Part shown: positions 11,856-26,230 of the stretch, one piece after another | Layout of the letters: every line of letters begins with the position of its first letter | Numbering within the stretch: position 1 is the stretch's first letter | Source: Candidatus Nanobsidianus stetteri | GTDB taxonomy: Archaea > Nanobdellota > Nanobdellia > Nanobdellales > Nanobdellaceae | Direction: 5' to 3' | Assembly: GCA_000387965.1 (NCBI GenBank) | Contig: APJZ01000003.1 | Coordinates: forward strand, 30,001-62,000 | Length of the DNA stretch: 32,000 nucleotides | Notes under the pieces: generated by a model | The model's database searches: none | The model's input: only the letters and a program-made list of their open reading frames with translations | What the model was told of the DNA's origin: nothing | Translations under genes and position numbers: made by a program

Positions 11856-12533
11856 ATGGACATAATAAATATACCAACAAAATATAAATTAAAAGAAATC
11901 AAAAATTTGGATGAATTGAAAAAATATTTACCAAAGAAATTTGCTCTAGTATCTTTAACACAATATTCTGAATATGCTAAAAAAATATATGAAATATTAA
12001 AGAATGATTATGAAATAATGTTAAAAGAAGGATTATATGGGATAAATGTTTTAGGATGTTACTCAGAACCTGCAAATATAAATGATATAGATACAGTATT
12101 ATTAATTGGAAATGGAAAATTTCATGCAGAAAATATTATAAGGAAATTAAAGAAAAGAGTAATTGTCTATGACCCTATGTATGGAGAAATAAATGTTTAT
12201 GAACCGGATTATAATTTTGACAAAATTATAGAATTTTTATTAAATAAAATAAAAAATTCAAAAAATATTGGAATAATATTATCTATAAAACCTGGACAAT
12301 ATTATTATTTGGAAACATTAAAAGTTAAAGATAAATTGGAAAAATCCGGAAAAAATGTATACTTATTTATCGGAGATACAATTGATACTTTACAATTATT
12401 GAATTTTCCATACATAGATTTCTGGATTTTTTCTGCATGTCCAAGATTGATTGATGATGTAATAGATAATAATATAAATGGTATAACTATTGATATTCTA
12501 ATAAAAAATTTAGATAAAGTAGTTAATATTTAA
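11856..12533 (+). CDS. dph2: Diphthamide synthase Dph2-like protein (short form)
   Basis: About 225 aa from the ATG at 11856 (the track starts at TTG 11853). VLGCYSEP.., LLIGNGKFHAENI.. and FSACPRLIDD resemble Dph2 motifs. As I recall, typical archaeal Dph2 is about 330-340 aa. Confidence 0.5.
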   Translation: MDIINIPTKYKLKEIKNLDELKKYLPKKFALVSLTQYSEYAKKIYEILKNDYEIMLKEGLYGINVLGCYSEPANINDIDTVLLIGNGKFHAENIIRKLKKRVIVYDPMYGEINVYEPDYNFDKIIEFLLNKIKNSKNIGIILSIKPGQYYYLETLKVKDKLEKSGKNVYLFIGDTIDTLQLLNFPYIDFWIFSACPRLIDDVIDNNINGITIDILIKNLDKVVNI

Positions 12534-14519
12534 TATTCCCTGTACGAATATATACAATCCTATTGAAGATAATGTAGAGAATATAAAGAATACTATTATG
12601 TTCATTATATAATATTTGTATAAATAATAATAGAATCCCAATTTATCTCCGCTATTTTCTATACTATTAATTGCATATATAATTACAAAGGCTATTGCCA
12701 AATTAAATATTCCGATTATAATTATCATTGTAGCTGGGGAGGTAATAGAATTTAAGTTAAATATATTTAATATAATATTTGGCAATGAATTTATATATTG
12801 AGAAAACCCTGAATTAGATGAAGCCAAATTTGATATTTGACTAAATTGAAAAGATAATTTATATAATATTTCTATAATCATCACACTAACTGCGCCAACT
12901 ATTCCTAAAATAATTGGAGCTAAAATTCTTAATAAAGATTTCAATTGAGATAAATCTTCTGCTACAAGATCTTTAATTCTCTCTTTTACTTTTGATATTA
13001 ATAAAAAATATCTTGCAATTATACCAGTTATAACAGCAGCTTCAGAAGGAGATTGACCACTGGCTTCATATAATAATTCCATTGTAGCTCTCAATTGCGA
13101 TGATGGTATTTTAGATAGAGCTCCATATCTCATATCAAATATCGAATCATAAAATGATAAACCTACCCTTAAATTTTGATATACTTTTGATATAAAATCT
13201 CCAATTGGACTACCTTTATATTTTGGGTAAACATATATCATCGCCTTTTCGAGTGGATAACCTTCATTTAATGCAGAACTTAAAGATAATAAAAATGATG
13301 GCAAATCTGTTCCTATTCTTTCTAAACTTTTATATAAATCTTTATAATGCGAATAGTAAATGAAAGCAATTAATGAAACAGATAAACCCGTTAAAAACAC
13401 TAAAAATTCTGATAATAATATTCCTGAAATATCGAATTTATATAAATATTGATATATTACAAAAAAGATTATGAAAAATAGTAATATACCTACTGAAAGT
13501 CCACTGGCTACTGATATTAATTTATTTGTTAAATCTTCCCTCTTTAAATAATAAAATAGATATATATCATCATTTGAAAAAACATTAATAATTTTTGAGG
13601 AAATCGAATAATTAATTGCATAAAATGCTAAAAATGGTATTAAAATATCAAATAATATAAATAAAACGAGAGGACTAAATATATTTTCTAAGAATATTGA
13701 TGCAAGAGGAAATACTGTTAATAACATAACTGGTAAAGTTATACCCAACATAGATACAAGATTTATTGTAGATCTTATTTCCCTAGAAAATTCATATAGT
13801 TCATTTACCAATTCCTCCAAAGCTTCTTCTATGGATTTATCTATCTGGAAATTCCTTCTATCCTTATCTGGATCATATAAGGCACTTAATATAAGCATAA
13901 TACCAGTATAAAAGAATTTTGCATTTTTTTCCCAAGATCTTGAATATTCTACTAAAGCTTCTGATGCAGAAACATATTTTCTATTATATATATCTCTTAA
14001 CAATCTTAACAAATCTAATTTTAATGGTAAGTTAATATTTTTTGCGGCAAATAGTATAGCTTGTTCTACATTTGGATTTTGTCTTAATTTAATAGCTAAC
14101 AATAATAATAGACTTATTAATTGAGATTTCTTCTTGTTATATAAATTATTATATAAAATAACATAATAATAATCGATCAATATGTATGATAATATACCAA
14201 AGGAAATAAATAGTAAGAAATATAAAGTAGATATTATTATTGATGGAATTATTCCTATAAAGATGAATAATATTAGAAAAAATATTGCTGCCGAATCTAT
14301 TTGATCAATGCTTACATCTAAAAATAGTTCTTCATTTATTTTTTCAAAATTTTTTCTTTTTTTATTATTTGATTTTATCTTTATTATATTTCCAAATGTT
14401 TTAACAATCTTTTCATAATATTTTAATTTATTACCAAAATAGAAATATTTATATAACTTTAATTTACCTTCTAAATTCTGATTATCTAATCTATTTAACT
14501 CAATTTCTGATATATCCAT
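12510..14519 (-). CDS. FlaJ/TadC-like type IV pilus/archaellum platform membrane protein
   Basis: 669 aa, polytopic, with two cytoplasmic T2SS-F-like domains (..LRLLRDIYNRKYVSASEALVEYSRSWE.. and ..LSSALNEGYPLEKAMIYVYPKYKGSPIGDFISKVYQNLRVGLSFYDSI..). 25-nt overlap with the upstream ATPase gene. Confidence 0.75.
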   Translation of the reverse strand: MDISEIELNRLDNQNLEGKLKLYKYFYFGNKLKYYEKIVKTFGNIIKIKSNNKKRKNFEKINEELFLDVSIDQIDSAAIFFLILFIFIGIIPSIIISTLYFLLFISFGILSYILIDYYYVILYNNLYNKKKSQLISLLLLLAIKLRQNPNVEQAILFAAKNINLPLKLDLLRLLRDIYNRKYVSASEALVEYSRSWEKNAKFFYTGIMLILSALYDPDKDRRNFQIDKSIEEALEELVNELYEFSREIRSTINLVSMLGITLPVMLLTVFPLASIFLENIFSPLVLFILFDILIPFLAFYAINYSISSKIINVFSNDDIYLFYYLKREDLTNKLISVASGLSVGILLFFIIFFVIYQYLYKFDISGILLSEFLVFLTGLSVSLIAFIYYSHYKDLYKSLERIGTDLPSFLLSLSSALNEGYPLEKAMIYVYPKYKGSPIGDFISKVYQNLRVGLSFYDSIFDMRYGALSKIPSSQLRATMELLYEASGQSPSEAAVITGIIARYFLLISKVKERIKDLVAEDLSQLKSLLRILAPIILGIVGAVSVMIIEILYKLSFQFSQISNLASSNSGFSQYINSLPNIILNIFNLNSITSPATMIIIIGIFNLAIAFVIIYAINSIENSGDKLGFYYYLYKYYIMNIIVFFIFSTLSSIGLYIFVQGILNINYFI

Positions 14520-16738
14520 TTCTTCATATTATCTAATATATAATCTTTTACAATTTCATTATATTCTTTAATACTTTTATCCACATATTGATAAAACACT
14601 TCATTGTACGCAGAAACAAAATCTGCTTCTAAAATATCTTTCCTATTCTTTTCTCTTGCTATATCTACTAATATCTTTTTTGATAAACCTATTGTTTCTA
14701 TCATATTCCATATTCTTTCCCAAGATTTTGACAAATATCTTATCCTAGATGCAACAGCTTTTAATATATCAGAATCTCCATTTATTAATTCTAATGTTGG
14801 TTCTAAATTATCCTTTTCCGCATCATAAACCATTAAATCAACAAAACCTTTTTCTTTTAATGGATCCTGATCCCATAATTTTCTTACTTCAGTTATCCTT
14901 AATACTCTTCTATATCTTTTTAATCCAGAAGGTTCTTTAATTGGATTTACAATTACTATTATATCTGTAGCTTTGAATGATGTTTTAGGAACTCCAAGAT
15001 CATTTACAACTCTATCATATACTCCATAGGGGCTTTCTGCATGCAAAGTACCCATTACCGCATTCGCTACGGCACCAACTCTCATAGCTTCATATAATGT
15101 TAAAGCCTCTTTTGATCTAACTTCTCCAACAATTATAGCACTATCTCCCATTCTTAAAGATACTCTTAAACCTTCCTCAGCAGATAATTCTGCAGATTTT
15201 AATGAAAATGGACTCCTAACTTTCATAGGAACTATATTATATCCTATTGATCTAAAAAATTCCGCAGGTATTTCTAGAGTATCTTCTACAGTTATCATCC
15301 TAACTTTTTTAGGTATTTCTAACATTAAAGCTGTTAATAATGATGTTTTACCACTTCCTCTTGTACCAGCAATTAAAATTGTCCTTCCATTTGCAACTAA
15401 AAAAGATAATAAACCTGCAGCCTGATAATTTAGCATTTTATTATCTATAAATAAAGGCAAAGTCCATGGTTTACTTCTATGTCTTCTAATTATATATGAT
15501 AATCCGAAGGGAGATAATGGTGGTGATAATGCTGCAACTCTTAATAATATATTATTTCCAATTACTAAATCTGTATCTAAAACTGGATTTGCTTCATCAA
15601 ATGGTCTTCCAGATATTAATCTTAATTTTGTAGCCCAAGATTCTACCTCCCTTCTAGTTGGAGTTACATTTGTAACACACATTTCATATTTAGAATGCTG
15701 TAAATATATTGGAGTTATACCTGCTGGCGGGTTTATAAATAGATCTTCTAAATTTTCATCTAAAACTATTTTCTCTATTATTCCAAAACCAATCGTATAT
15801 CTAATAATTATACTTTTAATTAATTCCAACCTATTTTTATCTATATTTATATTATATATAGACATTAATTTCGCTAGTATATTATTTAGTATATTATTAT
15901 ATATTTCTCTCAATCTTTCTACATCTAGATAATCTTCCTTTCTAGGTTCATATTCTTGTAAAATTTCTATTGCCTTATGGGATAAAAATGTTTCTTCAGA
16001 GAATATTTTATATTCTTCTGGAAATATATAATATCTAAAAACTGTTTCTTCAGGATTCTTTAATATAAAAACTTCCGTATTTTTATCCAATCTATAAGAA
16101 TCTACAATATTATAACTTTCTGAAATTTTATTTATATATTTTGTATCTATAAATTTTGGTTTTATATCTCCCAATAATATTCTTCTATATATTTCTCTAT
16201 TCCCAATTTGATATCCGATTAGAAATGGTTTAATATACTTATATAAAGGCAATGATTCAAATTTTATTAAAAAATTATCTATCAATGATATTAAATTTGA
16301 TATTTGATTTTCTAAATCTTTATTATTTTTTAATATTGACATTAATTTTCTTTTCATTCTTCTTATAAATATATATGTACCAATTGGATCTCTCAAATAC
16401 CCTTTATCCAAATAATCTATTATAGTTTTTATTTCGGAATATAATGGATTGCCAGTTAATAAATATTTATAATATTCCGATATATTATTTTTAATAGAGA
16501 GATATACATCAAGAAAACTATTTAATACTTTTATACTATCCTCATAATATTCTATATTTTCATCTTGCTCGATTACTATAGTATTTACAAATGGATCTAT
16601 AGATAATATATTTAATATATATTCCATTATATTTGGATCATCTTCAATTGTAGCAATATTATTATAATTTTTAGCATTTACATATAATACTCTTTCTTTT
16701 CCATTCATTTTAATTTCATATTGTAAATTATTTAGCAT
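14495..16738 (-). CDS. FlaI/VirB11-family type IV secretion-type ATPase, unusually long
   Basis: 747 aa. Walker A ILIAGTRGSGKTSLL at about residue 455-468, followed by RMITVEDTLEIP, IIVGEVRSKEA and MGTLHAE. This is the secretion-ATPase core, with roughly 190-aa N-terminal and about 100-aa C-terminal extra sequence relative to my memory of ~510-550-aa FlaI proteins. Confidence 0.85.
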   Translation of the reverse strand: MLNNLQYEIKMNGKERVLYVNAKNYNNIATIEDDPNIMEYILNILSIDPFVNTIVIEQDENIEYYEDSIKVLNSFLDVYLSIKNNISEYYKYLLTGNPLYSEIKTIIDYLDKGYLRDPIGTYIFIRRMKRKLMSILKNNKDLENQISNLISLIDNFLIKFESLPLYKYIKPFLIGYQIGNREIYRRILLGDIKPKFIDTKYINKISESYNIVDSYRLDKNTEVFILKNPEETVFRYYIFPEEYKIFSEETFLSHKAIEILQEYEPRKEDYLDVERLREIYNNILNNILAKLMSIYNINIDKNRLELIKSIIIRYTIGFGIIEKIVLDENLEDLFINPPAGITPIYLQHSKYEMCVTNVTPTRREVESWATKLRLISGRPFDEANPVLDTDLVIGNNILLRVAALSPPLSPFGLSYIIRRHRSKPWTLPLFIDNKMLNYQAAGLLSFLVANGRTILIAGTRGSGKTSLLTALMLEIPKKVRMITVEDTLEIPAEFFRSIGYNIVPMKVRSPFSLKSAELSAEEGLRVSLRMGDSAIIVGEVRSKEALTLYEAMRVGAVANAVMGTLHAESPYGVYDRVVNDLGVPKTSFKATDIIVIVNPIKEPSGLKRYRRVLRITEVRKLWDQDPLKEKGFVDLMVYDAEKDNLEPTLELINGDSDILKAVASRIRYLSKSWERIWNMIETIGLSKKILVDIAREKNRKDILEADFVSAYNEVFYQYVDKSIKEYNEIVKDYILDNMKKWIYQKLS

Positions 16739-16776: not shown

Positions 16777-17139
16777 ATGAATGATCCAGAGACACTTAGG
16801 AGATTAAAATATTTAGAAGAGAAAATTTCAATGTTCAATAATATACTGCAAACTATAGATGTAACTACCAGAAGTTCTTTAGATGATTTCAAATTAGAGA
16901 TAGAAAACATTAAGAAAGAAATAAATGATATAAAACAAGAAATAAATGATATAGAAATAAAAATAAAGGCAATAATGGATGAATTATCAAATTTTGCTAC
17001 TACAGATCAATTAAAAATTATAAATTCCATTCTAGACTACATAAATCCATTTGATTTTGTTACTAAGAAGGAACTGGATAAATTAGTAAAAGAAAAAATT
17101 ATGGAATATCTCGATAACCTATATAATCAAAAAGGTTAA
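16777..17139 (+). CDS. Hypothetical coiled-coil protein
   Basis: 120 aa with heptad-rich sequence (IENIKKEINDIKQEINDIEIKIKAIMDEL). It is divergent from the FlaI-like gene across a 38-nt spacer. No family recognised. Confidence 0.55.
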   Translation: MNDPETLRRLKYLEEKISMFNNILQTIDVTTRSSLDDFKLEIENIKKEINDIKQEINDIEIKIKAIMDELSNFATTDQLKIINSILDYINPFDFVTKKELDKLVKEKIMEYLDNLYNQKG

Positions 17140-17171
17140 ATTTATAATATTCAATATTTTTATTAAGAATT

Positions 17172-17876
17172 ATGAGAAGTCTACTCGGTCTATTTAGTAA
17201 GAAAGGTAATAAAGATCAGAGTGACCAACAGAATTTAGACAACCTATTTCAGGACTTTAATAGTCCAATACCACAAAATAATGGACCATTCAATCAATTT
17301 CAGCAGAGTAATAATATTAATCCAATAGCAAATAATTACCAGAATTTTTCTTTTGGTCAAACAAATCAGCAAATGCCATTACAGCAAAATATTTCAAGCC
17401 AATTTAATCAGTCATGGAACTTACCTCCACAACCAACCCCAAGTCCAAGTTTAAATCAATTTCAACCACAACAACAAGTTCAAAGTCAACCGGAATTTGG
17501 ACAAAGTAATTTTTCTATAGATGATAGACTTGAACAATATATAAACAATACAATAAATGATATATTAAAAGATAAATTGAATGAAGTACATGATGAATTA
17601 TCACAAATAAAAATATGGAAAGAGAAAGTAGAATATCTTATTAATAAAATGCAAGAACAAATTGATAAATTAGATAATAAAATAACCGAAATAAATAATT
17701 TAGCAACTAAAAAATTGGAAGAGTATGATAAAGGAATGCAAGAAGCAACAACAGAAATACAAGCATTACATAGATTGATAAGAACAATGATACCCGCAAT
17801 ATCTGAATCTACAAAAGAATTAAGAGAAACAGTAGAGGAATTAAAATCTTTAAGAGATTCAATTAGAAAACCTTAA
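17172..17876 (+). CDS. Hypothetical protein: N-terminal LFSKK motif, about 100-aa Q/N/P-rich low-complexity region, C-terminal coiled coil
   Basis: 234 aa. MRSLLGLFSKKGN.. is followed by NQFQQSNNINPIANNYQNFSFGQTNQQMPLQQN...QPQQQVQSQPEF, then a heptad-rich tail of about 110 aa. Uninterrupted ORF in an AT-rich context. Confidence 0.6.
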   Translation: MRSLLGLFSKKGNKDQSDQQNLDNLFQDFNSPIPQNNGPFNQFQQSNNINPIANNYQNFSFGQTNQQMPLQQNISSQFNQSWNLPPQPTPSPSLNQFQPQQQVQSQPEFGQSNFSIDDRLEQYINNTINDILKDKLNEVHDELSQIKIWKEKVEYLINKMQEQIDKLDNKITEINNLATKKLEEYDKGMQEATTEIQALHRLIRTMIPAISESTKELRETVEELKSLRDSIRKP

Positions 17877-19707: not shown

Positions 19708-20859
19708 ATGATATTTAAGGTTAAGATATATGATTTAACTGAAATATTTAAAGAAACAAAATCAAAACTAGTTAAAACAAATATAGATAATGGAGCAAAA
19801 GTATATGGAATAAAACTTGATAAAATGAAAGGAATGATTGGGTTTGAAATATTACCAAATAGAAGAATAGGAACTGAATTTTCTGATATTGCAAAAAGAT
19901 TTGGATTAAAGGGAATATTGCATTCGGATGAGTTACCAAACTATGGAATATCTGAAGAGGAAGTTAAAAATGTTAAAAGAATGTTAAACTGTTCGGATGA
20001 TGATGCTTTTATATTATTAATATCAAAAGATTATGAAGTAACAAAGAAGGTTTTTAGTTTAATAATAAATAGAATAAATGAATCAATTAAAAGAATACCA
20101 AAAGATACTAGACAAGCAAATGAAGATGGTACTACATCTTTTTTAAGACCACAGCCAGGTTCCGAAAGAATGTATCCCGAAACAGATCATCCCTATATAT
20201 ATATTAATAAAGATATAATTGAAAATAATGAGTACAATATAATAAGATATTATATAAATTATGGAGATATTAAAGAAACATTTGATATATACTATTTAAA
20301 AAAATTTGACAGAGATTTATATATTAAATTGTTAAATGAAGGTAAAACAATATTAAATTCTATTGATCCAGAATTTATTAAACAAATATTAAAATCTTTT
20401 GGATATAATGATAAACAAATTGAAAACATAATATGGAGTGAATATATATATGATATAATAAAAATATCTTTTGATTTAGATCCAAATACTGTATATTATT
20501 TATTCTTTCAAATGATTGGAGATACTGAAAATTTATTTAAAGAAAAAATAGAAAAATTTGATTTAGATTTTATATATAAAATAAAAGATTATTTAAAAGA
20601 TAAAAAGATTGTAAAAAATGCAATTCCAATAATATATTATCATTATGTTAAATATAATAAAGATATTGAAGATATAATAAGAGAAAATAACTTATATAAA
20701 AGAAATAGAGAAGAATTAAAGAAAGAAATTGAAGAATATTTAAAATCGATAAATACTAATGATAAAAAAGTTATTTTTTCAAATGTATTTAGTAAATTTA
20801 AATATGTGGCAGATAGTGAAGATATAAAAAGAGTATTGGAAGAAATATTAAACATATAA
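19708..20859 (+). CDS. gatE: Glu-tRNA(Gln) amidotransferase subunit E (GatE), C-terminal portion only
   Basis: 383 aa beginning in the AspRS-like insertion domain (..RRIGTEFSDIAKRFGLKGILHSDELPNYGISEEEV..). It continues through ..DGTTSFLRPQPGSERMYPETDHP and a helical tail. The N-terminal cradle segment (GLEIHQQL-type) is absent. Confidence 0.65.
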   Translation: MIFKVKIYDLTEIFKETKSKLVKTNIDNGAKVYGIKLDKMKGMIGFEILPNRRIGTEFSDIAKRFGLKGILHSDELPNYGISEEEVKNVKRMLNCSDDDAFILLISKDYEVTKKVFSLIINRINESIKRIPKDTRQANEDGTTSFLRPQPGSERMYPETDHPYIYINKDIIENNEYNIIRYYINYGDIKETFDIYYLKKFDRDLYIKLLNEGKTILNSIDPEFIKQILKSFGYNDKQIENIIWSEYIYDIIKISFDLDPNTVYYLFFQMIGDTENLFKEKIEKFDLDFIYKIKDYLKDKKIVKNAIPIIYYHYVKYNKDIEDIIRENNLYKRNREELKKEIEEYLKSINTNDKKVIFSNVFSKFKYVADSEDIKRVLEEILNI

Positions 20860-25089: not shown

Positions 25090-25838
25090 ATTAATATATC
25101 TATAAGACTAGTTCTTAAGCCTGGTAGAAATCCTAAATAAAATAACATTAAGTATATTACATTTCTTAGATCATCCTTTAAATAATATTTTGTATAAAGG
25201 GCAATAAATAATGTTAAAAATAGTTTTAATCCATAAAATAATAATGGATTATTATATTGAAAAATAAGGATATTTAATAACTGATGTTCAGATTGTAAAT
25301 TAAAATAATATACTGAGATAATTGAAAAAATAGTTTCATAGATTTCCCCAAATATTGATAAATAGAATAATTTTTCTGTATATGATAAATAAATTAAAAT
25401 AGAAAATAATAAAATGAATATTAAAGATGGTAATAAATTTATTGGCCTTCCAAAAATAAAAAATGGAATTTCCAATATTAAAATTACCAATAATATATAT
25501 AGGTAATATTTTCTGTATTTATATAAAAATAGAACTGGTAAAAAAGATATTAAGATCCATAGTTCTAATAGAGGTGTAAATAATAAATATGTTTTTATTG
25601 TATAACCAAGATCAATATTTACTCTTGGAATAATAAATATTGTAGTTAAAATAATTAGATCTAATAAAAAATATCTATCAATAATTACTTTTTTATTTTT
25701 TACAAAGAGATAATAAAAAAGAATAAAACCTACAACAAATAATAATCCATATAAAAATGTATTATATATATTATATTGATATTGATATCCTATTACTGGA
25801 TATATAAAATATTGATAAAAAATTTGATATAAATTCAT
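25086..25838 (-). CDS. Hypothetical polytopic membrane protein (possibly DUF63-like)
   Basis: 250 aa and very hydrophobic with multiple predicted TM helices. Its start ATG shares one nucleotide with the upstream stop (TAATG). The family assignment is only a vague recollection. Confidence 0.5.
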   Translation of the reverse strand: MNLYQIFYQYFIYPVIGYQYQYNIYNTFLYGLLFVVGFILFYYLFVKNKKVIIDRYFLLDLIILTTIFIIPRVNIDLGYTIKTYLLFTPLLELWILISFLPVLFLYKYRKYYLYILLVILILEIPFFIFGRPINLLPSLIFILLFSILIYLSYTEKLFYLSIFGEIYETIFSIISVYYFNLQSEHQLLNILIFQYNNPLLFYGLKLFLTLFIALYTKYYLKDDLRNVIYLMLFYLGFLPGLRTSLIDILI

Positions 25839-26230
25839 TAACGCCTATAATATTGAAAATATTGGAGTAAATTGTTTAATAGAGCAATTATATTATCTAA
25901 CTTCGTTGCAATTGTATCTAATTTTGTATTTAGCATTTGTATTAAATTATAATCAAAATTTGAATATTGATTATTATATCCATAATTTTGTGGAAAATTT
26001 GGTAAATATGCTTGAGGATTTAATTGTCCTGGAAATTGATTTTGTTGAAGTGTATTTTGACTTTGAATTGGTGGTGGAGGAGGTGGTAATAATGGCTCAT
26101 TTGGATATGGACCTGGAGGATAATTTCCTGGTCCTTCTGGTGGGTAATTCATAAAATCTCCCTGTTGGTTTATACCATAATCTTCATTATCCCTTTTTCC
26201 AAAAAGATTCTTAATAAAATCCAATGCCAT
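25838..26230 (-). CDS. Hypothetical protein: N-terminal LFGKR motif, P/Q/N-rich low-complexity region, short C-terminal helical segment
   Basis: 130 aa. MALDFIKNLFGKRDNED.., then ..NYPPEGPGNYPPGPYPNEPLLPPPPPPIQSQNTLQQNQF..NYGYNNQYSNF.., then LIQMLNTKLDTIATKLDNIIALLNNLL. Same three-part layout as the 17172-17876 product. Confidence 0.55.
   Translation of the reverse strand: MALDFIKNLFGKRDNEDYGINQQGDFMNYPPEGPGNYPPGPYPNEPLLPPPPPPIQSQNTLQQNQFPGQLNPQAYLPNFPQNYGYNNQYSNFDYNLIQMLNTKLDTIATKLDNIIALLNNLLQYFQYYRR

Follow-up and report, generated by a model that had tools for sequence, protein, structure and literature searches.

The Q/N-rich tract of a Candidatus Nanobsidianus stetteri coiled-coil protein is most likely a flexible P/Q-rich linker in a DPANN family linked to a type IV filament-like gene module

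Does a long run of glutamine and asparagine in an archaeal protein mark a prion-like, self-assembling domain, or is it a local variant of a more widely conserved feature? We addressed this question for a gene in a 32,000-nucleotide stretch of DNA (hereafter, the window) from Candidatus Nanobsidianus stetteri, contig APJZ01000003.1. The gene, at 17172..17876 (+), is an open reading frame (ORF) of 234 amino acids with an ATG start in the ORF listing, and homology places its product in the NEQ484 family of DPANN-specific alpha-helical or coiled-coil proteins. A first-pass annotation of the sequence had described the product as a tract of glutamine (Q), asparagine (N), proline (P), serine (S) and phenylalanine (F) between a basic amphipathic N-terminus and a heptad-repeat tail, and had proposed a self-assembling, membrane-proximal scaffold. 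The source genome, of the Nanopusillaceae, comprises 593,789 bp in 7 contigs with 23-25% guanine-plus-cytosine (GC) content. Our analysis indicates that the Q/N stretch is most likely the flexible P/Q-rich linker of a conserved coiled-coil protein.

We compared the composition of the protein with that of all 651 ORFs called in the genome, scoring each in windows of 80 residues. The tract is present as annotated: residues 15-116 (17214..17519, +; 102 residues) contain Q 25, N 18, S 12, P 12 and F 10, with 5 charged residues. The target ranked first of the 651 ORFs by every measure used, with Q+N 36, Q 21, Q+P 33 and Q+N+P+S 56 per 80 residues against proteome medians of 10, 3, 6 and 18, respectively, and thus lies above the classical prion-like threshold of at least 30 Q/N per 80. 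The tract is also predicted to be disordered; in an AlphaFold2 model built with 21 homologues, the predicted local distance difference test score (pLDDT) was below 50 at residues 1-20 and 30-112. The phenylalanines, its aromatic residues, are spaced along a nearly uncharged sequence, and no tandem repeat was found in the tract DNA. By the usual sequence criteria the composition is therefore prion-like, and the PLAAC scoring that the annotation proposed as a check is already in the literature: a survey of 1,262 archaeal proteomes with proteome-specific backgrounds lists in its supplement the orthologue A0A2T9WM92_NANST (233 residues, 86% identity to the target) as a candidate (Zajkowski et al., bioRxiv 10.1101/2020.07.20.212902). 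The expectation that such tracts would be rare in this background did not hold. Of the 1,262 proteomes, those of Ca. N. stetteri have the highest density of PLAAC candidates (13/598 proteins), and A0A2T9WM92 is not among the 16 candidates that were assayed experimentally (bioRxiv 10.1101/2020.07.20.212902). In the genome studied here, 7 other ORFs score 30-35 Q/N per 80, mainly via asparagine, so that the genome is generally rich in Q/N windows. The tract is 12% proline and its longest run without proline is 17 residues, which would weigh against an amyloid core of cross-beta type; the presence of proline is strongly unfavourable to prion formation, a lead rather than a test in this case. Second only to the target in the proteome is a 351-residue protein (G000:C2:144638-145693; L002) with a very Q/P-rich C-terminal tail of ~70 residues (Q 20, Q+P 31 per 80).

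The target is, by sequence comparison, the Nanopusillaceae orthologue of N. equitans NEQ484. The homologue in N. equitans Kin4-M (G002), at C1:429188-429658, was matched with E values of 1.9e-22 with the alignment of close homologues (A1) and 1.4e-47 with that of the broad family (A2). Its locus tag was assigned from gene order, because the ORFs upstream are NEQ482 (TFE) and NEQ483 by exact look-up. NEQ484 represents cls.004340, a priority uncharacterised DPANN-specific "alpha helical protein" found in 35/67 DPANN genomes and absent outside DPANN (Makarova, Wolf and Koonin 2019, PMC6393860); our literature search found NEQ484 mentioned only in that paper. The close homologues number 44 and bear the names Nanopusillaceae or Ca. 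Nanobsidianus stetteri. An exhaustive profile search recovered 855 representative clusters at E<=1e-3, of which 312 at E<=1e-10; all 855 are ~180-320 residues long, and the match extends to the C-terminus. The family was matched in 20/21 genomes of the order and in 295/301 sampled genomes of the phylum (GTDB Nanoarchaeota, including Woesearchaeota-type lineages), mostly as a single copy. This tally includes two unpublished genomes (G262 and G263), both matched. In the one unmatched genome of the order (G003), the ATPase gene that neighbours the target elsewhere lies at a contig start, so that the target is probably just off the assembly. All named matches were Nanoarchaeota, Woesearchaeota, Nanobdellota or evident mislabels, the genomes searched directly being those of the phylum, and a locus search with an alignment narrower than A2 (A6) returned only Woesearchaeota- or Nanoarchaeota-type records. 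Many of the metagenome-assembled genome (MAG) records that carry the gene (L109-L112, L114, L182 and others) are titled "uncultured Methanosarcinales archaeon" and one "Candidatus Aminicenantes bacterium"; on records with this Nanoarchaeota-type gene, such titles are probably placeholder or mis-binned labels.

Comparison across the family showed what is conserved in the tract. Among 278 members the linker ranged from 16 to 192 residues (median, 73), with a pooled composition of Q 16.6, P 15.0, N 11.1 and S 9.5%. For the 24 genomes whose local GC was known, linker Q+P was 35 ± 7% with no GC trend (rho 0.22), whereas N fell as GC rose (rho -0.69, p 2e-4, a p value that overstates significance since the sequences are related). 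The target linker has 18% N at 23.5% GC; that of N. equitans is a 42-residue P/Q/M tract with 4.8% N, and non-Nanopusillus linkers have 0-12.5% N, mostly 8% or less. Three of five Nanoarchaeales-order genomes carry the longest or near-longest linkers (71-104 residues). Across the aligned family, the conserved linker trait is thus P/Q richness, not Q/N richness, which is local to the source lineage. Most of the Q/N signal of the target is a by-product of AT-rich genome composition imposed on a P/Q linker.

We also considered whether the tract behaves as a neutral low-complexity insertion, the outcome that had been named as damaging to the prion-like proposal. This is true in part, as its sequence and length vary: among nine genomes of the same genus, every indel lies between residues 16 and 100, and protein lengths are 231-242 residues. 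Neutrality itself does not hold, since the ratio of nonsynonymous to synonymous substitution rates (dN/dS) among same-genus genomes was 0.21-0.24 in the tract, which indicates purifying selection, compared with 0.08 in the helix and 0.13 in the N-terminus. These values place the tract under a loose constraint, the pattern expected of a linker in which composition and length outweigh sequence. In the linkers of 148 representatives, the acidic-hydrophobic dipeptides DF, DI and DL and words such as QDF, DIP and FVNPF were modestly enriched over shuffled sequences, with FVNPF-like words in 8-14 of the 148. These enrichments hint at possible short linear motifs such as LFQDF at target residues 26-30, where AlphaFold2 draws a weak helix.

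The C-terminal part of the protein is a single long helix (residues 115-232; 17514..17867, +), which AlphaFold2 modelled as uninterrupted with pLDDT >90. The ~110-residue heptad-repeat tail of the annotation is borne out by this model and by the hydrophobic periodicity of residues 117-232, which peaks at 3.55 residues; power at 3.5 residues was 2.12 compared to 0.24 ± 0.24 in shuffled sequences, and was equalled in 0/2000 shuffles. From the model, residues 115-232 probably form a coiled-coil oligomerisation rod. The most conserved block of the helix, residues 181-228 (17712..17855, +), contains the invariant or near-invariant A1 columns K.EEYDKG...ALHRLIRTMIPAISESTKEL, and phylum-wide conserved columns in A2 are Y185, A198, P208, E216 and L217; this block is a candidate partner-docking surface. 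The close homologues in A1 share a conserved N-terminus (M..LF.KK), a variable middle and a conserved C-terminal helix with EYDK...ALHRLIRTMIPAISESTKEL. In A2 the order is the N-terminal motif, a ~45-residue domain in many members, the P/Q-rich linker and a conserved helix of ~115 residues. An AlphaFold2 model of a distant member, built with 137 sequences, resolved the optional domain as a confident three-helix bundle and the C-terminus as a single helix of 113 residues. The three-helix domain is present in most other lineages and missing from 5/5 Nanoarchaeales-order genomes examined. A Foldseek search with this model gave no match at E<=1, and weak resemblances to the PEX14 N-terminal domain and to helix-turn-helix domains were set aside as not being evidence. 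Neither did family searches supply a name: the target matched no Pfam or NCBIfam model at cut-off, scans of 137 family members with the same libraries gave scattered sub-threshold coiled-coil matches only, a PDB profile search returned generic coiled coils (GCN4 fusions, tail fibres and vimentin), and an ESM Atlas search returned only "hypothetical protein" clusters. The coiled-coil model DUF7310 was dropped as a link to haloarchaeal arCOG07564, as it matched only 3/137 members and nothing relevant in the source genome.

At the N-terminus, residues 1-14 (17172..17213, +) carry the hydrophobic-F-basic motif MRSLLGLFSKKGNK, with the consensus M..LF..KKK in A1, A2 and A6, and we predict that this segment is a membrane-binding element. 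Of the annotated basic amphipathic N-terminus, the basic character and a conserved motif stand; the amphipathicity is weak (hydrophobic moment, about 0.4). The target has no transmembrane segment (maximum Kyte-Doolittle value in 19-residue windows, 0.53), no signal peptide and no class III pilin-like leader. We dropped the idea that the motif is a signal enriched proteome-wide, with 9 occurrences observed against 6.6 expected. The membrane role is proposed because the design resembles that of SepF and because SepF and an ArlC/D/E-like protein of the same genome start similarly: N-termini of the type ..IF.(K/R)KK occur in SepF (PF04472, E 6e-12; G000:C2:124054-124449, L104) and in the ArlC/D/E-like protein with FlaC_arch and Arch_fla_DE matches (G000:C1:124727-125461, L106).

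We next turn to the gene neighbourhood. The FlaI/FlaJ neighbours noted in the annotation are present, on the opposite strand. Divergently transcribed from the target is c1, an oversized FlaI/CpaF-like secretion ATPase of 747 residues at 14495..16738 (-) (PF00437 T2SSE, E 6.3e-22), adjoined by c2, a FlaJ/TadC-like membrane platform of 669 residues at 12510..14519 (-) (PF00482 T2SSF, E 0.0011, below cut-off). Directly upstream of the target lies c3, a coiled-coil partner of 120 residues at 16777..17139 (+), for which we built alignment A3; its motifs RRLR.LEERY at the N-terminus and DVKVL.KYI..W.P..FVT..EVEK at the C-terminus are kept phylum-wide. A fourth component, c4, consists of polytopic membrane paralogs of ~190 residues, and its three tandem genes in the source genome are on another contig (G000:C2:71214-72941, L107). 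Neither c3 nor c4 matched a Pfam family above cut-off; the match of c3 to FlaC_arch (E 0.008, 16.9 bits) fell below the 27.8 cut-off. The c4 proteins were rejected as candidate pilins, being polytopic membrane proteins. Exactly three copies of c4 occur in each of three other Nanoarchaeales genomes searched, N. equitans included, and in most Woesearchaeota-type genomes the c4 genes are directly beside the target gene.

We surveyed synteny in 17-kb regions of 20 further genomes from different families, clustering all ORFs, for 24 genomes overall. A phylum-wide module emerged, made up of c2 (~730 residues), c1 (~760 residues), c3 (120-170 residues), the target and three tandem c4 genes (~190 residues). 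In the Nanopusillaceae and the sister family, the order is FlaJ-like and FlaI-like genes in one direction and c3 followed by the target in the other, and this divergent arrangement, then followed by the three c4 genes, was found in about 19-20/24 of the diverse genomes; c1 adjoins the target in 19-20/24 and c2 adjoins c1 in 19/24. A second set comprised 80 loci from public MAGs, 48 of which had at least 5.5 kb on either side of the target. These 48 contained c3 in 46, three c4 genes in 44 and c1 in 41 cases, and c3 was immediately upstream of the target on the same strand in 63/73 loci having both. In N. equitans, c1 (44% identity), c3 and three c4 genes are all retained, scattered far apart in the genome. 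Adjacency to c3, c1 and c4 across dozens of families is hard to explain without a functional link, and a membrane-proximal scaffold linked to FlaI/FlaJ-like genes, as the annotation had suggested, fits this phylum-wide synteny.

The module is not the archaellum, because four other FlaI-like ATPases and a true ArlC/D/E-like protein are encoded elsewhere in the genome. No archaellin or KaiC-like family was matched among the module genes and the neighbours examined. In all, this 594-kb genome encodes five FlaI/T2SSE ATPases, namely c1 and four of 509-599 residues (C1:79872, C1:126902, C2:52458 and C2:82749). In a sister-family genome, c1 (L027 4770-7547, -; G001:C5) has 925 residues, and the query match to it fell into two pieces (residues 4-492 and 463-744), suggesting an insertion within the ATPase.

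Taken together, these data suggest that the target is a cytoplasmic, membrane-tethered coiled-coil protein that serves a DPANN-specific type IV filament-like machine as scaffold or stator-like accessory, a reading to which we assign a probability of roughly 0.62. By analogy to the amphipathic helix of SepF, the short hydrophobic/basic N-terminal motif would bind the inner membrane face, with the disordered P/Q-rich linker as a flexible tether that, at 24% GC, has grown to ~100 residues and become filled with asparagine. The ~115-residue helix would oligomerise as a coiled coil, and its conserved C-terminal third probably docks a partner, proposed to be c3 and/or the ATPase. The target and c3 would then most likely act as a cytoplasmic scaffold or stator-like accessory, in a role akin to that of ArlX or ArlC/D/E, for a machine whose parts would include the oversized FlaI/CpaF-like ATPase, the FlaJ/TadC-like platform and the three polytopic membrane paralogs. 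Of this picture, our analysis shows how the protein is built, with its disordered tract and its helix, how it is conserved, its synteny and the GC dependence of asparagine; membrane binding, oligomeric state, partners and machine function are what we infer.

Known systems resemble this arrangement in different respects. Like ArlX and ArlC/D/E, the target is a coiled coil encoded next to a FlaI/FlaJ-type motor, presumably membrane-proximal and with a possible ring or stator role. It differs from ArlC/D/E in lacking a FlaC_arch (PF05377) or Arch_fla_DE (PF04659) match at cut-off, and its module differs from archaellum operons in lacking archaellin, ArlF, ArlG and ArlH genes. ArlX is anchored by a transmembrane helix, whereas the target has none. 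The linkage to type IV filament systems comes through the T2SSE-family ATPase (c1) and the sub-threshold T2SSF platform (c2). In such systems, a coiled-coil component has been described in one haloarchaeal type IV pilus subclade; the ATPase clade of that subclade is shared with nanoarchaea, for which no pilins were identified (Makarova et al. 2016, PMC4858521). M. smithii SepF starts with an amphipathic, vesicle-binding helix (residues 1-12), after which come a flexible linker and the core domain (PMC8178401). The target is like SepF and E. coli ZipA in design logic only: its N-terminus would bind the membrane, a flexible linker follows, and the C-terminal domain carries the function. It has no sequence or fold homology to either, and it ends in a long helix instead of a globular domain that binds FtsZ. 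The ZipA linker is likewise P/Q-rich. The tract resembles the candidates of Zajkowski et al. in being Q/N-rich and disordered, and differs from them in its high proline and in the P/Q-rich rather than Q/N-rich character of the family tract. The closest published locus type is that of Hamm et al. 2024 (PMC11291902), who described two conserved loci of cluster-2 DPANN with CpaF, TadC and DPANN-specific coiled-coil proteins, annotated as nucleoporin-like and sigma-1-like and seen by proteomics. By locus description, the target too is a coiled coil beside CpaF-like ATPase and TadC-like platform genes, and GatE, which they name among the neighbours in Locus 1, is encoded here 2 kb downstream of the target; a weak similarity to sigma-1 (6GAO) is common to both. 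The GatE-like ORF of the window (19708-20859, +; 383 residues) combines a GAD domain with just the final part of the GatB_N catalytic domain, and may be a short or split GatE. For the Hamm proteins, viral-attachment-like or nucleoporin-like roles were proposed, whereas for the target, which has no export signal, a cytoplasmic tethered scaffold is favoured. The family of NEQ484 (cls.004340) is likewise alpha-helical and matched in DPANN-type archaea, and the difference lies in context, which was published as "house-keeping" and is here one of tight linkage to a FlaI/FlaJ-like module.

Several observations weigh against the scaffold assignment. The tie of the target to the ATPase and platform comes solely from gene neighbourhood, and searches of Pfam, NCBIfam and PDB gave no relative informative on function. 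The conserved module contains no pilin or prepilin peptidase; these may be encoded elsewhere. The N-terminus, MRSLLGLFSKKG, is short as well as weakly amphipathic, and in this K/F/I-rich proteome a regular expression for the motif gave 9 hits, compared to 6.6 ± 2.5 in shuffled N-termini. The AlphaFold2 models are of monomers, so that the oligomeric state is beyond their scope. The N. equitans gene is beside tfe, TatD and tfe follow the target in the Nanopusillaceae, and Makarova et al. called the family context "house-keeping" (PMC6393860). These last points lend themselves to another explanation, namely that the target serves more generally as a membrane-associated housekeeping scaffold, in division or envelope organisation for instance, and sits beside the ATPase operon by chance without working with it. 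Its near-universal single-copy range resembles that of a core cellular gene, and two look-alikes of 130 and 219 residues, described below, share its design in non-pilus contexts. Such a chance placement is nevertheless unlikely in our estimation, as the gene stays next to c3, c1 and c4 in dozens of families of the phylum, and c1, c3 and c4 co-occur with the target even where gene order has been lost.

Two further explanations concern what the protein itself does. The tract could be a functional prion-like or phase-separating domain that forms an amyloid, hydrogel or condensate, such as a phenylalanine-glycine (FG)-nucleoporin-like meshwork at the base of the machine. The Q/N score of 36 per 80 at the top of the proteome, the spaced phenylalanines and the purifying selection on the tract are compatible with this, as are the PLAAC call on the orthologue, which was scored against its own proteome background, the Congo red binding of half of the 16 archaeal candidates assayed by Zajkowski et al., and the "nucleoporin-like" annotations reported by Hamm et al. 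(PMC11291902). We nonetheless regard a prion or condensate function as improbable: the N bias follows genome GC and is mostly 8% or less in non-Nanopusillus linkers, the tract is 12% proline with at most 17 residues between prolines, its length runs from 16 to 192 residues across the family with no conserved sequence, many such tracts occur in the source lineage, and the target itself is absent from the experimentally assayed proteins in the studies found. More speculative still, and the least probable possibility that we consider, is that many copies of these P/Q/N/F tracts, anchored to the membrane through their N-termini and gathered into bundles by the coiled coils, make up a cohesive meshwork of FG-nucleoporin-like or condensate type that gates or organises symbiont-host traffic; this meshwork would sit on the cytoplasmic face of a DPANN-specific, pilin-less machine derived from type IV filaments. 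Alternatively, the protein could be exported and exposed on the surface as a fibre for attachment to the host, built as a trimeric coiled coil in the manner of reovirus sigma-1. DPANN coiled-coil proteins are predicted to be structurally like sigma-1 (PDB 6GAO; Hamm et al.), the target profile touches 6gaj/6gao (E 0.0017-0.0026), and the gene adjoins a secretion-type ATPase. Generic coiled coils (GCN4 fusions, tail fibres and vimentin) score similarly or better, however, and the target lacks a signal peptide, a class III pilin-like leader and a transmembrane segment (maximum hydropathy, 0.53), while the conserved basic N-terminus and the three-helix domain of the relatives look cytoplasmic; we judge an exported fibre very unlikely.

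The 32-nucleotide spacer between c3 and the target (17140..17171, +) contains a TTTATAA box ~26 nucleotides before the ATG, read from the sequence as a putative promoter element only. As for the look-alikes, a 130-residue protein in the window (25838-26230, -) starts with the motif ..LF.K(K/R), continues with a disordered tract rich in Q, P, G and N and ends in a coiled coil, and its gene lies between those for a DUF63 membrane protein and ribosomal protein S2. A 219-residue protein (G000:C2:179885-180544, +; L001:2886-3545) has the same three-part design as the target and the 130-residue protein, and its gene is followed by one for a 146-residue coiled-coil protein. Apart from the N-terminal motif, no homology of either look-alike to the target was detected.

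Published work already covers the family, the type of locus and the PLAAC candidacy of the orthologue. New in this work are the firm link between NEQ484 and the module, the near-universality of the family in the phylum, the three-part architecture and the recognition of P/Q richness as the conserved property of the linker. The largely AT-driven Q/N signal is a caution for PLAAC-type surveys, in which the Nanobsidianus proteomes come out as the richest in prion candidates of all Archaea. Proteins of the NEQ484 type have been listed among the priority unknowns of DPANN archaea, and the three-part architecture of membrane motif, P/Q tether and conserved docking helix is testable. The pilus-like locus of the target is a leading candidate for the host interaction of obligate DPANN symbionts, and our results tie this family to that pilus-like module at near-universal, single-copy frequency.

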